64,000 bases of DNA, from assembly GCA_043803405.1 (NCBI GenBank), contig JAZDKB010000019.1, positions 256,001-320,000 of the forward strand. Direction: 5' to 3'. Origin of the DNA: Spirochaetota bacterium (GTDB lineage Bacteria; Spirochaetota; UBA4802; JAFGDQ01). Below, piece after piece: positions 42,191 through 49,788 of this stretch (within the stretch, counting starts at the first letter, position 1; each line of letters starts with the position of its first letter). Under the pieces are notes generated by a model, which ran no database searches, was not told where the DNA came from, and saw only the letters and a list, made by a program, of their open reading frames with translations. Both the position numbers and the translations under genes were made by a program.

Positions 42191-43318
42191 ATGAAAAGCG
42201 TTAAATTGATAAATAGTAATATTTTTTCCGTTATTACAATATTTTTTGTTTTATTTTCAGCCGGCTTTATTTCGCAGGTAAAGACACTGCATGCGGAAAT
42301 TGCCGCAGAATACTGGACCAGCGATATTCATAAAAATTATATTAGCATAAAAACGACAAAAGGAAAGTTTTATGCATATATTGTTCTTCTGTTTAATGAA
42401 AATCCGCATTTTATTAATTTAATACAGGAAGACAGCATTACTCCCGAAACGCTGCAGAAAGATGGCTTCCATGTAAAGGAATATATTAATTATTTGGACT
42501 CAATAAAAAATACAGATCAAAAAAAGCTCGCGGAGCAAATGCTTAATATTTATCTACATCCGAATAAATTTAAAGAAAAAGCCCTGGAGTCAATACAGGA
42601 AGAACTGACAAAGCATAATGTAATTTTGCGATTTTCGAAAATCAAGACGGCCAGTTCTGAAAAAATAGTTCTGGATTACTGTATTTATGGAAGAAAAGAA
42701 CCAATCAATATTTCCCACCCGCTTTTTGAGACACAGGAAAAATTGTTCAACATACAGCCTTTCATTTATTATGACGAATTTTCCACCAGTAATTCGACCT
42801 TCTATTTCGATATGGTTTATATAAATCCGGATGAAGTAAATAACGATTATCTCATTGCTCAAAATATTATAAGCGGGAAAAATGTCGAGTCGATGTTTTT
42901 TGTCGGCGCAAAAATAAATGACAATATAAAATATTGTATAATACATGCTTTTAATAAATCGGGAAATATTAAAAGCGAAATATTGCATATGTTTATTATT
43001 CATGAAATTACACATAAAATATTGAACAATCATTATAATTATTTTGATCAAATAACGGGCGAGGAACTGGCTCTGCTGAGTACAATTTATCAAAATCCTT
43101 ATCTGGGCTTGTCGGTATTATACAGTTATCTTGATTATAACCGGATAAACTCGCATAGAATCGCCGCGACAAATATTATAAGGTTTATTGCGAACAAAAC
43201 TGCCAAACCCGGATTGGTTGACGATCCTTCCGACCTTAGATTGCTTGGAATAAACGAGGTTAAACGTCTTACCAGGGAACATTTCAATTCAATAATGAGA
43301 AATGTTAAGAATAATTAA
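42191..43318 (+). CDS. Hypothetical exported protein with HExxH motif (possible zinc metallopeptidase)
   Basis: Signal peptide, IIHEITHK followed by a downstream Glu (GEELA). Confidence 0.65.
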   Translation: MKSVKLINSNIFSVITIFFVLFSAGFISQVKTLHAEIAAEYWTSDIHKNYISIKTTKGKFYAYIVLLFNENPHFINLIQEDSITPETLQKDGFHVKEYINYLDSIKNTDQKKLAEQMLNIYLHPNKFKEKALESIQEELTKHNVILRFSKIKTASSEKIVLDYCIYGRKEPINISHPLFETQEKLFNIQPFIYYDEFSTSNSTFYFDMVYINPDEVNNDYLIAQNIISGKNVESMFFVGAKINDNIKYCIIHAFNKSGNIKSEILHMFIIHEITHKILNNHYNYFDQITGEELALLSTIYQNPYLGLSVLYSYLDYNRINSHRIAATNIIRFIANKTAKPGLVDDPSDLRLLGINEVKRLTREHFNSIMRNVKNN

Positions 43319-44415
43319 AAATGCAGGTGGATCGGATTTTGAAGATTCATACTGTTGAAATCTTTTTCAAATACTCCTGTAATAGCATTGATCTTTAGCT
43401 CATTCTCAATTTTTGATGTATCCCCGGACTTGCTAAAAAGAATCTCTTCAATTTTTTTCCATATATCAGCTATCCGTTCACAGGAGATAAACAGCAAGTC
43501 TTTCACGGATTCATAGTGTAGTCCGCTTGAACCGGTAGGGTGGAACCATCTCTCTTTATGAAGATTCAATACGTGAGTATTCAATTTGCCCGACGGCGGA
43601 TACTTTATTAGATAGTCAGAATAAAATAGTTTTTTCTTTTTTATGTAGTTAATTATTTTAATAAGCTGTGGATTCCTGCTATTTTTTATTTTAAAAGAAA
43701 ATTTAATAAAAATCGGTATTAAATTCATAATAAAAATTGCAGGCAATATTTCATTATCTTTTTGTTTGATTATTATTAACTTGTTGTAAGTTTCGGGGTG
43801 AGCTTCTTTTATTGAATTTAAAAGAAAAGTTTTAATCGGATGTTCCACCTGCTGCAGACCGTATTTTTCCCATTCCGGAAGCATGTCGTCTAAATTAAAA
43901 TCGTATGGATTTTTATTATAATCGCCGTCAAACGGCTGGCTGAAAAAAACATCCAGATTATTTTCCAATAAAAGATGCTGTTCCCTGAAATATTTCTGTT
44001 CAGCTTTATTACCTGAAGTGGTAAAGCCGGACCAGTAATAAATGTAAGGATTAAAGAATGAATCCGAGATTAAATGCGATATCAGCCCGTATAGATATGC
44101 ACGTTGATTGGATGCCCATTCATTATTCTGATCTTTGTAGGATATCAATGTAAATAGCATTGATTTTAATAATTTTTCATTTTGATTGGAGTGAAGCTCG
44201 TATGAAATTTCACTTCCGCTGATATAATTATTTTTTTTGAATGGCAGATAAGCGAAAATATTGGGGCCAAGAGCTCCGAAAAGGCCGGCTTTTTTGAAAT
44301 TTTTAGATTTGAAAAGAATCTCAATGGATTTTGAGTAAATATTACTATGTTTTTCTTTTTTTAGAAAATTAATTGATTCATAAAACACTCTGCTGTGAGT
44401 AATAATTCCAGGCAT
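43315..44415 (-). CDS. Zinc-dependent phospholipase C family protein
   Basis: MPGIITH, GALGPN, YLYG.ISH..SD and H..LE..LD pattern. Confidence 0.7.
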   Translation of the reverse strand: MPGIITHSRVFYESINFLKKEKHSNIYSKSIEILFKSKNFKKAGLFGALGPNIFAYLPFKKNNYISGSEISYELHSNQNEKLLKSMLFTLISYKDQNNEWASNQRAYLYGLISHLISDSFFNPYIYYWSGFTTSGNKAEQKYFREQHLLLENNLDVFFSQPFDGDYNKNPYDFNLDDMLPEWEKYGLQQVEHPIKTFLLNSIKEAHPETYNKLIIIKQKDNEILPAIFIMNLIPIFIKFSFKIKNSRNPQLIKIINYIKKKKLFYSDYLIKYPPSGKLNTHVLNLHKERWFHPTGSSGLHYESVKDLLFISCERIADIWKKIEEILFSKSGDTSKIENELKINAITGVFEKDFNSMNLQNPIHLHF

Positions 44416-44667
44416 TGTTTACCTTGTAATGCTAGTATTAATGAATAATTAATACTATTGTATTTCTTCGGATTGTCAACAAAATATCAATTTAAACATT
44501 TTTTTCAGAAACTGAAAAAAATTCAAAAGCAGACTATTCATATCAAAAATTATCCATATTTTTAAATAATCATATATAATCATCTATAATTGTTAATATT
44601 TGCCCTTAATTCGTTCACCAAAGGGGACGAAAAGACGTATATGGAAGAGTGTTTCCATGTCTTAAAG

Positions 44668-44680
44668 GTTCTTTGAAAAC
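44668..44680 (+). promoter_or_regulatory. rRNA-type boxA antitermination motif upstream of the first flagellin
   Basis: GTTCTTTGAAAAC, preceded by hairpin 44639-44660. Confidence 0.65.
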
Positions 44681-44849
44681 GCTGGGGTAATGATTTGCCT
44701 GTTTAAGCAACATGTACTTTTGTTATTTCTATTCCAGTCTTGTATTGCCCATAAATAAGCCTGGAAGGGCTGACATATTCCGGCTGTTTGTAAACAGTCG
44801 TTATGTTGGTAAAGACGACCGGTTCTTTCCTGCCCTTGAGAGTCCGGTT

Positions 44850-44880
44850 GGCAAGGAAGCCTTCAAATAACAAAGGAGTG
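44850..44880 (+). promoter_or_regulatory. CsrA-type binding sites in the flagellin leader
   Basis: GGC-AAGGAA-GCC hairpin plus AAAGGAG overlapping the SD. Confidence 0.6.
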
Positions 44881-44884
44881 TAAA

Positions 44885-45733
44885 ATGATAATAAATCACA
44901 ACATGAGTGCAGTAAATGCAAACAGGGCGTTAAAGTTCACGCACTGGGAAGTTAACAAAAGCATGGAGAAGCTTGCATCAGGTGAACGCATCAATAAAGC
45001 CGGCGACGATGCTTCCGGATTAGCTGTTTCGGAGAAAATGAGAACCCAGATTCAGGGTTTAAGGCAGGCTGAAAGAAATACGGAAGACGGTATGTCTTTT
45101 GTACAGACTGCGGAAGGTTATTTGAATCAATCTGCTCAGATTATTCAACGAATCCGCGTTCTCTCTGTTCAGGCTGCAAACGGGATTTATTCTCCTGAAG
45201 ACAGACAGATAATCCAGGTGGAAGTATCTGCGCTGGTAGATGAAGTTGACCGGATTGCTTCACAGGCCGAGTTTAACAGGTTTAAAGTCCTAACCGGTGA
45301 ATTCTCAAGGATCAATGCCAAGGCTAGCATGTGGTTCCATCTTGGTCCCAATATGAATCAGCGCGAGCGGGTTTATATCGGCACTATGACTGCCCAGGCA
45401 TTCAGATTCAGGGATGTTTCGGGTAGAATAGCTATATCACTGTCGACTCCTGACGGCGCTAACAAATCTATTGGGATAATGGATGCAAGTCTGCAAAAGC
45501 TTGCTAAACAAAGAGCCGACCTTGGAGCTTACTATAATAGGCTTGAGATGACATCAAAAGGACTAATGACCGCCTATGAAAATACTCAGGCAGCTGAGTC
45601 CAGGATTAGGGATGCCGATATGGCAGAGACAATGGTTGATTTTACAAGAAGTAATGTTCTTGTAAATACAGGTACTGCCATGCTGGCCCAGGCAAATTTA
45701 CAACCCCAGTCAGTATTAAGATTATTAGGATAA
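44885..45733 (+). CDS. flaB: Flagellar filament core protein (spirochaetal FlaB type)
   Basis: [30 protein letters not shown] and SRIRDADMA. Confidence 0.96.
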
Positions 45734-45757
45734 AATAATTTTAATACCAGCTTATTT

Positions 45758-45770
45758 GTTCTTTGAAAAC
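45758..45770 (+). promoter_or_regulatory. Second boxA motif, upstream of the second flagellin
   Basis: GTTCTTTGAAAAC, identical to 44668-44680. Confidence 0.65.
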
Positions 45771-45798
45771 TATTTTAGGTTCTCACTTTCCTTCCTGT

Positions 45799-46022
45799 TC
45801 GCCGGGGAAACCCGGCGATCACCGGCTGTTCCGGCAGTTGGTGATGTCGGAGGGCATCACTGGCTGCCGGAACAATCCGGCGCCGGTGTTGTCTGAATAA
45901 TGGGCAGTTCGGACTGCACCATAAGGAGTAAACCTTTGATCTGTTTAATATGGATCCGGTTTCTGCGCAAGCGGAAGCCAGAAAAATCCTGAACCGTTTA
46001 TACAAACTAAAAAGAAACGGTT
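45799..46022 (+). ncRNA. Candidate structured RNA / leader between the two flagellins
   Basis: Five hairpins including GAAA and GCAA tetraloops and a 22-bp stem whose only non-Watson-Crick pairs are G-U on the + strand. Confidence 0.55.
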
Positions 46023-46057
46023 TTGCATTAAACAACCACAGGGAGGGAAAGTTTAAT

Positions 46058-46903
46058 ATGAGAATCAATCATAATATGAGTGCCATATTCGCAAATCGGC
46101 AGCTTAAATTTATTGCTGTGAATCTGGGTAAGTCAATTGAGAAGCTGGCATCCGGTGAAAGGATAAATACGGCTGGTGACGATGCTTCTGGTCTGGCTGT
46201 ATCTGAAAAGATGCGGACTCAGATAAACGGCCTGTTCCAGGCTGAAAAGAACGCTCAGAACGGGCTTTCTTTTGTACAGGTCGCAGAAGGATCACTTCAT
46301 CAGCTTAATGATATCCTTCAGAGAGTGCGGATGCTTTCGGTCCAGGCTGCTAATGGAATTTATTCTAATGCCGACAGACAGCAGCTTCAGGTGGAAGTCT
46401 CGCAGTTGATAGATGAGGTTGACAGGATTTCAACCTCGTCGGAATTCAACAGATTGAAAATGCTTACCGGGCGCTATTCCAGAGGGAGTAAAATCGGCAG
46501 TATGTTCTTTCACGTGGGGCCAAACCAGGATCAGCGGATCAAAGCTTTTATTGCAACAATGAGCGCAAAGTCCCTTAATCTTATTGAGGCGGGAGACCGT
46601 AAGCGTTCTATTTCAACTGTCGGAAATGCAAACGCCATGATTGGATATGTCGATGTAGCTTTAAACAAGCTTAATCGGCAAAGGGCAGATCTGGGCGCGT
46701 ATTACAACAGGATGGAGAATACAATAATGGCGCTTACCAGGAATTACGAAAATATGGTAGCGGCCGATTCCCGCATAAGGGATACGGATATGGCTTCAGA
46801 GTTGATTGAGTTTACAAAGAACCAGATTCTTTTGCAGAGTAGTACTTCGATGTTGGCACAGGCTAATTTAATGCCTAAAACAGTCCTGGAACTACTTAAA
46901 TAA
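46058..46903 (+). CDS. flaB: Second FlaB-type flagellin
   Basis: MRINHN start at ATG 46058 (SD GGAGG), [14 protein letters not shown] and SRIRDTDMA. Confidence 0.95.
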   Translation: MRINHNMSAIFANRQLKFIAVNLGKSIEKLASGERINTAGDDASGLAVSEKMRTQINGLFQAEKNAQNGLSFVQVAEGSLHQLNDILQRVRMLSVQAANGIYSNADRQQLQVEVSQLIDEVDRISTSSEFNRLKMLTGRYSRGSKIGSMFFHVGPNQDQRIKAFIATMSAKSLNLIEAGDRKRSISTVGNANAMIGYVDVALNKLNRQRADLGAYYNRMENTIMALTRNYENMVAADSRIRDTDMASELIEFTKNQILLQSSTSMLAQANLMPKTVLELLK

Positions 46904-46943
46904 GAATCTTTAGGATGCAGATCAACTCTGCAGCGGAGTTGAT

Positions 46944-46987
46944 TTTCTCCTCTCTGGGATTTTTTTAGAGAGGAGAAACTTTTTTTT
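46944..46987 (+). terminator. Intrinsic terminator after the second flagellin
   Basis: TTTCTCCTCTCT...AGAGAGGAGAAA followed by a T run; a second hairpin lies at 46920-46944. Confidence 0.75.
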
Positions 46988-47004
46988 AAAGAAGGAGGTT
47001 ATAT

Positions 47005-47067
47005 ATGCGGTTATTTGGAATTTTATTTTCAATTGCCGCTTACATGGAGGTAGTTTATGGACATTAA
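47005..47067 (+). CDS. Candidate 20-aa upstream ORF overlapping the flaG start (MRLFGILFSIAAYMEVVYGH)
   Basis: Perfect SD AAGGAGG 6 nt before the ATG. Confidence 0.35.
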   Translation: MRLFGILFSIAAYMEVVYGH

Positions 47068-47407
47068 TAATGTAATTGCAAACAAAATTGACAACATTTC
47101 ACAATCAAGAATTGGGAATGTTAAAAACCAGACAGAACACATTTCATCGGAAAATGTAAAGCTGGGAAGAGATCTAAAATTGACTAAGGAAAATACTGAC
47201 AATTTAATTGATACTCTTAACTCGGCGGCTAAATCCGTCAATCAGAGGGTGAGCTTCAGCTTTAGTGATAAAACCAACAGGGTTATTATGAAATTCCTTG
47301 ATGGCGATACAAATGAAGTTGTAAGGGAGATTCCTCAAAAAGAAATGATCAGACTGTTGGAACATATGCACGAGTTAATCGGCATGTTTGTTGATGAATC
47401 CCGTTAG
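47057..47407 (+). CDS. flaG: Flagellar protein FlaG
   Basis: F......RVI.K..D..T.EVVREIP..E...L...G..VDE pattern; lies between flagellin and fliD. Confidence 0.88.
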   Translation: MDINNVIANKIDNISQSRIGNVKNQTEHISSENVKLGRDLKLTKENTDNLIDTLNSAAKSVNQRVSFSFSDKTNRVIMKFLDGDTNEVVREIPQKEMIRLLEHMHELIGMFVDESR

Positions 47408-47488
47408 GGATCATCCGGATAAGGATTTATTATAGATCTTATTTATTCTATCGTGGACAAAATAGCCTTTTGTTTTGACGTGACAGCT

Positions 47489-47541
47489 ATATACTCATCC
47501 TGAATGCATTTTAAAATAAAAGTCAATCAGGGTGAGTATAT
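47489..47541. repeat. Minimal member of the ACTCATC palindromic repeat family
   Basis: ATATACTCATCCTGA...AAAAGTCAATCAGGGTGAGTATAT inverted repeat. Confidence 0.55.
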
Positions 47542-47763
47542 TAATATGATAAAAACTTCCTTAAATATCCTGCCATTCTTCTCAATCGAATCTAAAAAAA
47601 ACATATTATGTCATATTTTTTTGTATTTTTGCTCAGTAATTTTATTATCTAATTCTGCTATTTTACCGATAATATATTGAAATATTTTGTGATTTAATTT
47701 ATATTAAAATGAACTTATTGAAGCCTTGTTGTAATTAAAATAACAAATAATTGGGATAAAATT

Positions 47764-49788
47764 ATGCCGGTCACTATGGGCGGTTTGGCCTCCGGGCTGG
47801 ATACGGATAATATAATTCAGAAACTTGTTGAAGTTGAGGCAAGACCCATACATCAATGGACTGGTGAAAGAGAGAATTCCAGGAAAAGAAAAGATGCATT
47901 AGGAGATTTAAAAACCAACCTGGTAAAACTGAATGAGTCTGCAAAAGATCTTTACGGATACAGGGCTTCTTTTAATGATAAGAAGGCCATTTCTTCCAAT
48001 CAAAGCATTGTTGAAGCTTCGGCGAATAAAATTGCCGAAAAAGGCATCAAAGAATTAAAAGTAAAAGAGCTTGCTTCGAATAATAAAATTTCAACTGATA
48101 AAATCGGTAAAGATGAAAAGCTTCCTGCCGGTAAATTTAAAATTACTGTTAACGGCGAATCGCAGTCAGTAAATTTTAAAGGCGGAACGCTGGAAAAGCT
48201 TCGCGACAGAATTACAGAAGTTGCTGCTGAAATTATATCTCCAACCTACGTTAAAACAGACAGTAATAATTACATCATGACTATAGAATCGAAAACACCT
48301 GGTAAAAAAGGTGAAATTATTCTGACCGGCGATAAGGATTTACTAAAAAAGATCGGTTTGGTAACCGGCGAGAAAGGAGAGAATCAGGAAAAGACAAAGC
48401 TGATTTTCGATAGAAAATTTTTTAAAACATACAGCGGCATCAAAGAAATACCAAAGGAAGACGGCAGTATGGAAGTAGCTCAGGACGGCAATTCAATTAA
48501 GATTGAGGGAATTCTTTGGAGAGAATATGAACTTCCAATAGCCGCACCAATAAAAAAAGATACGGTACTTGAATTAAATATCGATTATCAGAAGGAAGTT
48601 GTTGAAGAGGATACCACTCCGTATCGCGTGGAAATCGGGCCGGCTGAGGAAGTAACCATTAAAGGTATAAAGCTGAAAGGTTATAATGTTTCCAGGATCA
48701 GGCAGATTGAGAAATCGGATGATAAAAAGAAAACTCCTGATGTGCTTGGTATCGGTGTTGTCGTAATGGAGAATGATAAACGAACGGAAAAAATATATGA
48801 ACGCGGGCCGGACGTTAAAGGGAAGCAGATTCTTCCTGTAGGCAATGATTTTGACGGTAAGACAATATCAAAAATTATTTTTTACTGCAACGAGGGAGCT
48901 GCTAAATTTTCGGCCGCAAATATTCTGACTCCTCTAAAAGGAACAGGAATTCTGGAAGCAAAGAACGTGATTAAAAATGCTGCGGATGCAAAAATTGAGA
49001 TCGATGGCGTTGAAATAGTCAGGGATAAAAATAATAATTTGAATGATGTTATTAAAGGCGTTGATTTAAATTTAAAGAGAAGTTCTGCTGATCCTGTAAC
49101 AATAACAATTGAGCCCGATATCGATAAAGCCATTGATAAGATAAAAAAATTCGTAAAAGCTTATAATGACTATCTGGATTTAAATATAAAACTAACAAAA
49201 ACAGCTAAGATTTTGAAACCGGATAATTTTGCAAAGTCAAAAGATGAAATGGGTCTATTTATCGGGGATATGACGATTTTAAGGCTGGAAAATTCTTTAA
49301 AGACCGCTGTCGGCGAATCTTATCCGTCAAGACTTGATAATCCGATCAGGATACTTGTGCAAACCGGAGTGTCTACAGGCGCAATTAATTCTGAGTGGGA
49401 ATCAATTAAAGAAGGCAAACTTGTAGTTGACGAGACAAAACTGCGGACCACAATTGACGCAAATCCTGAGGGCATAACAGAATTCTTCGGATCAGATACG
49501 GACGGTGATAACAGAATAGATAACGGCATGGCCTTCAGGGTTGAGAGCCTGCTAAAACCGTACATAATGTCGGGCAGAAGCGTCATTGCCGCCAAGGTCG
49601 ATCAGGAAAATGAATCGATAAAAAGCGTGGATAGCAGAATAGACAGACATAAAGAGCACTTAAAAAAATACGAGGAAAAGCTTAGAACTAAATTTGCTTC
49701 TATGGAAAAATCCGTTTCGGATTCCAAAGCACAGGGCAGTTGGATGAAGATGAACCTGGGCATTCAGGATTCTGACGGTAAAAAATAA
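47764..49788 (+). CDS. fliD: Flagellar filament capping protein
   Basis: GLASGLDT..II.KL..E..P, N.LNDVIKGV, IKKFV.AYN and L..KF..ME. Confidence 0.93.
   Translation: MPVTMGGLASGLDTDNIIQKLVEVEARPIHQWTGERENSRKRKDALGDLKTNLVKLNESAKDLYGYRASFNDKKAISSNQSIVEASANKIAEKGIKELKVKELASNNKISTDKIGKDEKLPAGKFKITVNGESQSVNFKGGTLEKLRDRITEVAAEIISPTYVKTDSNNYIMTIESKTPGKKGEIILTGDKDLLKKIGLVTGEKGENQEKTKLIFDRKFFKTYSGIKEIPKEDGSMEVAQDGNSIKIEGILWREYELPIAAPIKKDTVLELNIDYQKEVVEEDTTPYRVEIGPAEEVTIKGIKLKGYNVSRIRQIEKSDDKKKTPDVLGIGVVVMENDKRTEKIYERGPDVKGKQILPVGNDFDGKTISKIIFYCNEGAAKFSAANILTPLKGTGILEAKNVIKNAADAKIEIDGVEIVRDKNNNLNDVIKGVDLNLKRSSADPVTITIEPDIDKAIDKIKKFVKAYNDYLDLNIKLTKTAKILKPDNFAKSKDEMGLFIGDMTILRLENSLKTAVGESYPSRLDNPIRILVQTGVSTGAINSEWESIKEGKLVVDETKLRTTIDANPEGITEFFGSDTDGDNRIDNGMAFRVESLLKPYIMSGRSVIAAKVDQENESIKSVDSRIDRHKEHLKKYEEKLRTKFASMEKSVSDSKAQGSWMKMNLGIQDSDGKK

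Follow-up and report, generated by a model that had tools for sequence, protein, structure and literature searches.

The DNA examined here (the window) is a 64,000-nucleotide stretch of a Spirochaetota genome that carries two tandem flagellin genes, flaB1 and flaB2, after which flaG and fliD follow (Table 1). The start of flaB2 was re-placed from the longest-ORF start at 45950 to 46058, where the product begins MRINHN and a Shine-Dalgarno (SD) sequence is present. The original prediction held that a 13-mer, GTTCTTTGAAAAC, precedes both flagellins as an rRNA-type boxA and occurs nowhere else in the window. The positional part of this claim was confirmed: the copies at 44668-44680 and 45758-45770 are the window's sole exact matches, each lies ahead of a flagellin gene, and a scan of the whole genome (3,975,434 bases) returned the same two copies, compared with 0.35-0.51 expected under Markov models. 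The distance from boxA to the start codon is 217 nt for flaB1 and 300 nt for flaB2 (96-332 nt over the paralogues), which places both sites outside the ~50 nt from the start codon that characterize a suhB-type boxA. This genome has a third flagellin gene (G000:C6:144180), situated where its contig ends; about 150 nt ahead of this gene the variant GGTCTTTAATAAC is present. A terminator search of the region found no terminator-like site between flaB1 and flaB2.

Table 1 Features of the flaB1-flaB2 region, with positions given in the window
Feature	Position	Strand	Basis or remark
AT-rich promoter region, six (A/T)TA(A/T)T words with 10-bp period	44556..44610	+	sequence, relatives
sigma70-like TTTAAA-18-TATAAT	44561-44590	+	promoter search
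Short hairpin 5' of boxA, boxB-like position	44641..44658 (arms 44641-44646, 44653-44658)	+	folding, relatives
boxA no. 1, GTTCTTTGAAAAC, predicted NusB-S10 loading site	44668..44680	+	exact match, clade 16S leaders, conservation
Anti-RBS strand, leader 1	44717..44728	+	pairs with 44865-44876
Conserved hairpin, invariant GCCCA loop (44747-44751)	44732..44766	+	alignment/consensus fold
Variable long hairpin	44769..44810	+	folding
CUGCCC hairpin loop, near-invariant	44830..44835	+	alignment
GGC-AAGGAA-GCC hairpin (GGA in loop) and ACAAAGGAGTG over SD	44850..44880	+	alignment/consensus fold
flaB, first gene (paralogue clade A), 282 aa	44885..45733	+	protein similarity
boxA no. 2	45758..45770	+	24 nt 3' of flaB1 stop, 300 nt 5' of flaB2 start
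Anti-start/anti-SD strand, leader 2	45778..45797	+	pairs with 46039-46051 (SD) and 46060-46066 (codons after AUG); closes whole leader
20-bp covarying hairpin, GGAG-containing loop	45827..45874	+	13/20 pairs with two-sided change
Hairpin loop AUGGGCAG, UGGGC invariant	45900..45907	+	alignment
flaB, second gene (paralogue clade B), MRINHN start	46058..46903	+	protein similarity, SD present
Intrinsic-terminator-like hairpin and U tract	46944..46978	+	between flaB2 and flaG-fliD
flaG	47057-47407		window; after flaB2
fliD	47764-49788		window; after flaG

Analysis of rRNA leaders bears on whether the word is a boxA. Among the 22 16S leaders of relatives with a readable anchor (21 genomes; one locus without an anchor was left out), 21 contain GTTCTTTGAAAAC exactly and the remaining one contains GCTCTTTGAAAAC. 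A short GGG...CCC hairpin, of similar GGGG(A)...(U)CCC form, usually precedes boxA in these leaders. The single 16S leader of this genome reads GTTTTTTGAAAAC, with C4 changed to T, and its spacer reads GATCTTTTAAAAC; C4 is reported as the position altered in inactive E. coli boxA mutants (PMC5725501). The designation as an rRNA-type boxA is upheld by the leaders of the clade, and the differing 16S boxA of this genome counts in part against the original prediction by its own refutation terms. A scan of 41 genomes of the order gave 135 exact matches to the 13-mer and 2 to a reversed control. The 55 sites without assignment to a listed flagellin or 16S gene comprised 12 rRNA-leader-like sites, 9 sites before CRISPR-type repeat arrays and 2 more flagellin leaders, while the others had no assigned class or lay within ORFs. 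On account of these site classes, the 13-mer marks flagellins together with rRNA and CRISPR transcripts, for which Nus antitermination is known, and by this sequence evidence it is the boxA of the clade.

The rrn boxA of Bacillus subtilis, consensus AUGAUCUUUGAAA, is reported to bind NusB directly (PMC13753749), and its likeness to the flaB boxA makes NusB-S10 binding at the latter very probable. NusB, Rho, CsrA, FliW, FliA and RNase III are encoded in this genome, with csrA and fliW adjacent, and a nusB match was detected in 292 of 301 genomes of the phylum. Loss of nusB together with boxA was considered as a natural experiment in one genome without a nusB match (G014) and was set aside, as all three congeners have nusB and the absence is probably an assembly gap. 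A SuhB-family gene (PF00459) was present in 26 of the 31 genomes searched and was found neither in this genome (94% complete) nor in two congeners (0/3). Because SuhB was not found in the genus and the genome's own 16S boxA carries the C4 change, the Nus complex here may differ from that of E. coli.

To define the distribution of boxA, 220 flagellin genes were gathered by protein similarity, independently of the motif, and placed in a tree; truncated ORFs and genes with less than 100 nt of upstream DNA were dropped. Clade A contains the first flaB of the window, clade B the second, clade C a third paralogue and clade D a short-leader paralogue. Within the order, the pattern G.TCTTT(G/A)A precedes 32/34 genes of clade A, 31/33 of clade B and 26/27 of clade C, and none of the 19 clade D genes from the same genomes, whose leaders look short. 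Conservation before flaB in relatives, which the original prediction had left to be checked, is thus present and specific to particular paralogues. Elsewhere in the phylum, a protein-anchored sample showed boxA before 15/37 second-in-tandem flagellins, 2/38 first-in-tandem and 3/32 solo flagellins, and before none of the sampled genes of one flagellin family (f15). These protein-anchored figures are preferable to those of a first pattern search of the phylum (35/46 in the order, 3/255 outside), whose fixed distance window and start-codon pattern make it miss cases outside the order. When GTDB genomes were scanned with a pattern, at least 119 stretches matched; of the 119 listed, 115 scored as flagellin, and all 115 have a G at boxA position 1, a base that the pattern did not specify. 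Among the 80 listed matches with a title, 77 were from spirochaetes (Treponema, Spirochaeta, Sediminispirochaeta, Alkalispirochaeta alkalica and uncultured groups), and two came from other phyla, both non-flagellin chance matches; in Treponema, Alkalispirochaeta and Sediminispirochaeta records the flagellins with boxA include second-in-tandem genes. In the leader alignments the boxA core is invariant and its flanks vary, and the word, which is non-palindromic, always lies on the sense strand relative to the downstream unit.

A point that the original prediction missed is that boxA is followed by a covarying strand which pairs with the gene's own ribosome-binding site (RBS), in a helix that closes a structured leader of 180-300 nt; because of this strand, boxA is tied to translational control as well. 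In clade B the boxA G and the beginning of the anti-start strand are 17-23 nt apart, and 16 of 24 leaders have a spacing of 20 nt. Cognate pairings exceeded non-cognate pairings in permutation tests, all of which are inflated by kinship (shared sequence) among the leaders: -27.5 versus -24.3 kcal/mol in clade B (0/10000 permutations) and, more weakly, -18.9 versus -16.6 kcal/mol in clade A (0/10000), with an earlier and partly different set giving 0/20000 for leader 2 and only 94/20000 for leader 1. The same test on the 71 distinct GGAGG-type leaders among the GTDB matches listed gave -17.1 versus -13.8, with -9.5 for shuffled sequences (0/20000, likewise inflated). Here the anti-SD, typically ACCCUCC, lies almost directly 3' of boxA, its core 3-5 nt past the 12-nt boxA in most cases (45/71), and A. 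alkalica has a compensated anti-SD/SD pair, GAUCCU/AGGAUC. A cognate anti-RBS strand is missing from clade C, although boxA is present there (-9.7 versus -9.4; 2055/10000). With no protein included, the SD has a mean P(unpaired) of 0.23-0.30, indicating that the RBS is already closed by RNA pairing. Judged from the leaders, boxA is located at flagellin starts with about 100-330 nt of ribosome-free RNA upstream, and the RBSs of clade A, clade B and the second-in-tandem genes are predicted to be self-occluded in addition.

The interiors of both leaders are structured. In leader 1, the hairpin claimed to precede boxA has the arms listed in Table 1 and is kept in relatives (mean z -2.3; 25/27 leaders below z -1). 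The region 44600-44900 folds better than 100/100 shuffles (z -3.3), and the hairpin given as an example of a structured leader, now placed at 44769-44810, is part of this fold. The GGA of the 44850-44880 hairpin and the GGA of the SD would constitute a CsrA-type site pair, and such GGA-loop hairpins with an SD GGA resemble the CsrA sites described for Leptospira flaB (PMC8668096). No Rfam match at the gathering score was obtained in 43000-48000 of the window or in 15 related loci. Leader 2 folds with z = -9.9; two-sided changes affect 40 of the 62 pairs in its consensus, which scored above 500/500 shuffles and all slid controls, although the consensus structure came from the same alignment as was scored, which favours it. 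The 45827-45874 hairpin is a possible CsrA site or RNase III substrate. In relatives, the 45900-45907 loop pairs in cis with a CUGUCC strand and covaries with it (3/10000), either as a pseudoknot or as an alternative helix.

All sigma70-like matches on the + strand upstream of flaB1 end at 44590 or before. A sigma28 promoter gained no support, as the KCCGATA word occurs in 1 of 34 clade A upstream regions, although FliA is encoded. In a groundwater metatranscriptome, an identical 259-nt contig covers 44641-44899 at depth 4 with no cover on 42500-44640, and in a wetland run a relative's contig corresponding to 45677-45846 spans the end of flaB1 and the second boxA, both contigs giving neither strand nor start site, with DNA carry-over possible. 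Contigs from RNA libraries cover both flagellin genes but cannot rank their levels; three further runs (X2, X3 and X5) contain relatives only, at a small share, and carry no information on levels.

We regard it as an even chance (probability about 0.5) that a Nus complex at boxA protects the flagellin message and helps to close its leader, with translation released later; an antitermination, a chaperoning and a switch-on step are what we infer from the combined analyses. NusB-S10, with NusA and NusG, would load on RNA polymerase at boxA as at the rRNA and CRISPR leaders of the clade. The leaders appear built to remain untranslated, with the strand 3' of boxA pairing with the SD (and in flaB2 with the start region) and with GGA loops that could supply CsrA sites. 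While translation is off, the complex would shield the ribosome-free RNA from Rho, allowing the flaB1-flaB2 message to be completed, and would keep the anti-RBS strand, as the 5' partner, tethered at the exit channel during the looping-out of 180-300 nt, so that the closing helix forms. Translation would be turned on post-transcriptionally, probably by FliW-CsrA flagellin feedback or by opening or cutting of the leader. A tethering of this kind has been proposed for boxA-boxC, where NusB on boxA would retain boxC at the exit channel up to the emergence of the pre-16S trailer, a model that the insertion tests described in the same report support only partly (PMC10250234).

The Nus complex is favoured as both protector and leader-closer because of the ribosome-free stretch, a setting where Rho acts and for which rRNA and CRISPR transcripts employ boxA, and because of the fixed spacing from boxA to the helix; the second boxA is located where ribosomes leave flaB1. 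Against protection, both leaders are rich in G over C and tightly folded, which makes them poor Rho loading sites, and any exposure to Rho may arise within the untranslated ORF and not within the leader. According to a 2025 review, boxA stimulates or inhibits Rho depending on context (PMC12360218). In Treponema denticola, FlaB3 is reported as minor (0.18 versus 0.71 for FlaB1) and rises about five-fold upon flaB1 deletion (PMC9481697); compared on published levels alone, these figures would fit a self-silenced second gene under feedback.

A Nus-dependent repression of the E. coli suhB and lambda N type is the strongest alternative, although we consider it somewhat unlikely. Ribosome loading would be blocked, and the resulting uncoupling would let Rho terminate within flaB, with assistance from the anti-RBS helix, such that boxA lowers flagellin output or sets paralogue stoichiometry rather than protecting the message. 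The mRNA boxA sites reported as tested (suhB, a Citrobacter toxin gene and lambda nutL-N) repress translation (PMC5725501, PMC12360218), and distance is not prohibitive: inserting up to 100 nt between boxA and SD is described as leaving suhB repressed, and nutL of lambda, ~200 nt upstream, as repressing N translation across a structured leader (PMC5725501). The closing helix would also place boxA spatially beside the SD, and the low FlaB3 level of T. denticola and its rise without flaB1 agree with repression too. However, the same word stands at the CRISPR arrays and rRNA leaders of the clade, where its known role is protection; the RBS is closed by RNA pairing alone; and contigs over both flagellin genes are present in RNA libraries, though they cannot rank levels.

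A phylum-wide reading, which we hold to be doubtful, is that the Nus complex acts as a co-transcriptional RNA chaperone under which leaders, tethered through boxA, shut over the RBS and meet sequences behind the ORF. The contacts would pair the GCCC loops of leader 1 with the UGGGCAG loop in leader 2 and, around the third paralogue, GGUAUUCCCU with AGGGAAUACC. Whether one flagellin is translated could in this way determine whether the following one is, which would fix filament stoichiometry.

Improbable by comparison is a translational ON switch in which NusB-S10 on boxA covers the adjacent anti-SD and opens the RBS, possibly sensing free S10. The anti-SD core is indeed within reach of a protein footprint in the 45 of 71 listed GGAGG-type leaders that have it 3-5 nt after boxA, and clades A and C have at the SD an invariant CAAAGG to which the boxA core UCUUUG is complementary. 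When 13-30 nt from boxA were forced unpaired, however, the SD stayed shut (P 0.22-0.28 in leader 1, 0.03-0.10 in leader 2), and that of leader 2 opened only at 40 nt. A boxA:SD pairing proposed by RNAalifold was not adopted, as its pairs never vary and thus lack covariation support and the same CAAAGGAGTG SD is found in phylum members without boxA.

We also think it improbable that the word, instead of being a Nus site, serves as a DNA operator or as a nuclease or processing signal that forms one half of an RNase III-type stem. RNase III is encoded, and 12/12 rRNA operons pair boxA from its first base with the 16S trailer, from which part of the conservation of boxA at rRNA could stem. An rRNA-like stalk with boxA around the flagellin mRNA was nevertheless not found in clades A, B or C: a trailer-like complement is present downstream in 0/29 flaB loci and duplexes of boxA with the 3'UTR equal shuffled controls. 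The word, moreover, is non-palindromic, always lies on the sense strand of the downstream unit and also heads CRISPR arrays, and the direct binding of NusB by the near-identical B. subtilis rrn boxA (PMC13753749) argues for a Nus site. A chance match or passive remnant, for which one could cite an expectation of ~0.4 copies of the 13-mer per genome and some matches of relatives inside long ORFs, is refuted by conservation and paralogue contrast, given that 2/2 genomic copies precede flagellins, that 89/94 genes of clades A-C have boxA versus 0/19 of clade D, and that an invariant core stands between variable flanks.

Host boxA sites are known from rRNA operons, from CRISPR arrays and from a small number of mRNAs in gammaproteobacteria, which they repress. 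The flaB leaders share with the boxB-boxA-boxC leader of rrn operons and its antitermination complex (NusA/B/E/G, SuhB and S4) the boxA word and a 5' hairpin, and with rrn boxA-boxC a long-range helix, its 5' strand being set at a short and constant spacing downstream of boxA. They differ in that the target is an mRNA, that the long-range partner is the gene's own SD/start region, that boxA lies outside the long-range helix whereas the rRNA boxA of the clade lies inside the stem, and that the three genomes of this genus yielded no member of the SuhB family, which belongs to the E. coli complex. In common with CsrA-FliW control (B. subtilis hag; Borrelia, Leptospira and Treponema flaB) are the GGA-loop hairpin, the SD GGA and the adjacent csrA and fliW, but the leaders here are far longer and self-closing. 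RNase III has a role at the lambda pL leader (nutL, N), with which the flaB leaders share a long hairpin as a potential RNase III target; no N-like protein or GNRA-type boxB loop was identified at flaB, and the genes are host flagellins. As described for lambda, boxA lies ~200 nt before the start codon across a structured leader (PMC5725501). Ahead of CRISPR arrays, where boxA is reported to direct Nus antitermination (PMC13753749), the same word in this order likewise heads a long ribosome-free stretch, which at flaB is instead a regulated 5' leader and a protein-coding gene. With E. coli suhB the flaB sites share location in an mRNA 5' leader and a link to translation initiation, but the suhB boxA is given as 6 nt from the SD in a short leader and that of flaB is about 100-330 nt upstream beside an anti-RBS helix (PMC5725501).

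The published survey of mRNA boxA sites, as its report describes it, covered gammaproteobacteria only and sites within 50 bp of the start codon, and four supplements examined as text contain no flagellin term (PMC5725501). The accessible text of the T. denticola paper has no mention of boxA, and no publication linking boxA to flagellin genes or to spirochaetes turned up in our search, although most subscription journals fell outside it and absence from print is not proven. Whichever direction its effect takes, boxA on flagellin mRNAs is a real, conserved and apparently undescribed boxA/Nus variant. Its conserved and paralogue-specific occurrence in two Spirochaetota branches defines a new class of predicted Nus-factor target. 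The leader design of boxA, anti-RBS strand, structured interior and RBS is likewise undescribed and suggests flagellin messages that are made complete yet silent until needed. Spirochaete flagellins are reported to rely on post-transcriptional control whose mechanisms are only partly known (PMC3757020), and the flagellin boxA offers a concrete, mutable element for such control. It also provides a natural mRNA case for the debate over Nus factors as antiterminators versus RNA folding chaperones. If the chaperone reading were true, it would add a phylum-wide regulatory layer bearing on why spirochaetes keep several FlaB proteins in set ratios.

Several further observations concern the leaders and their surroundings. 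The (A/T)TA(A/T)T words at 44556-44610 have a similar phasing in relatives and point to a bent promoter or to a regulator that binds as a multimer. Clade A leaders also conserve CC-N3-GG and CG-N6-CG elements at 44614-44640, immediately next to the boxB-like hairpin on its 5' side. The hairpin at 46944-46978 parts flaB2 from flaG-fliD, and if a Nus complex weakened this terminator, boxA would set flaG-fliD expression too. The conserved GCCC loops of leader 1 (44747-44751 and 44830-44835) could pair by sequence with the UGGGC loop of leader 2, which is invariant, and a switch between the two leaders through these loops is possible. Kissing of the loops was not adopted: they are complementary, but no covariation was seen, and two loci (L029 and L402) change CUGCCC to CUACCC without a partner change.

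In clade C, the leader word GGUAUUCCCU matches AGGGAAUACC just past the stop codon in 18 of 20 loci (L417-L436). The leader word GGTATTCCCT is complementary to AGGGAATACC, 22-43 nt past the stop, in 18 of 20 loci, and the genome's own copy lies ~70 nt upstream of its third flagellin gene (G000:C6:144180). This leader-trailer pairing is near-invariant and the cognate test was not significant (8762/10000); one locus, L435, has a matching change on both sides. The words could act as a bracket around the ORF from its 5' and 3' sides, or as an operator in the DNA that is split in two.

In one rRNA operon of the set (L001) and 11 related operons, boxA lies wholly within the 16S leader-trailer stem with an opposed G-G, and trailer pairing in these operons would displace NusB. 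In a second genus (G008 and G025) no inositol-monophosphatase/SuhB-family gene was found either, and its flaB2 boxA is altered (GTTCTTTGAAATT). In another genome (G005), five copies of the boxA word (L150-L154) each follow a shared CCCTACGAT-like repeat end, and these copies may be part of a mobile element or of a group II intron. Repeated elements with boxA at their end, several of them at contig ends, also occur at L155-L159 and L201-L203 (G006) and at L172, and probably represent a multicopy unit (array, rRNA or mobile element) that was assembled incompletely.
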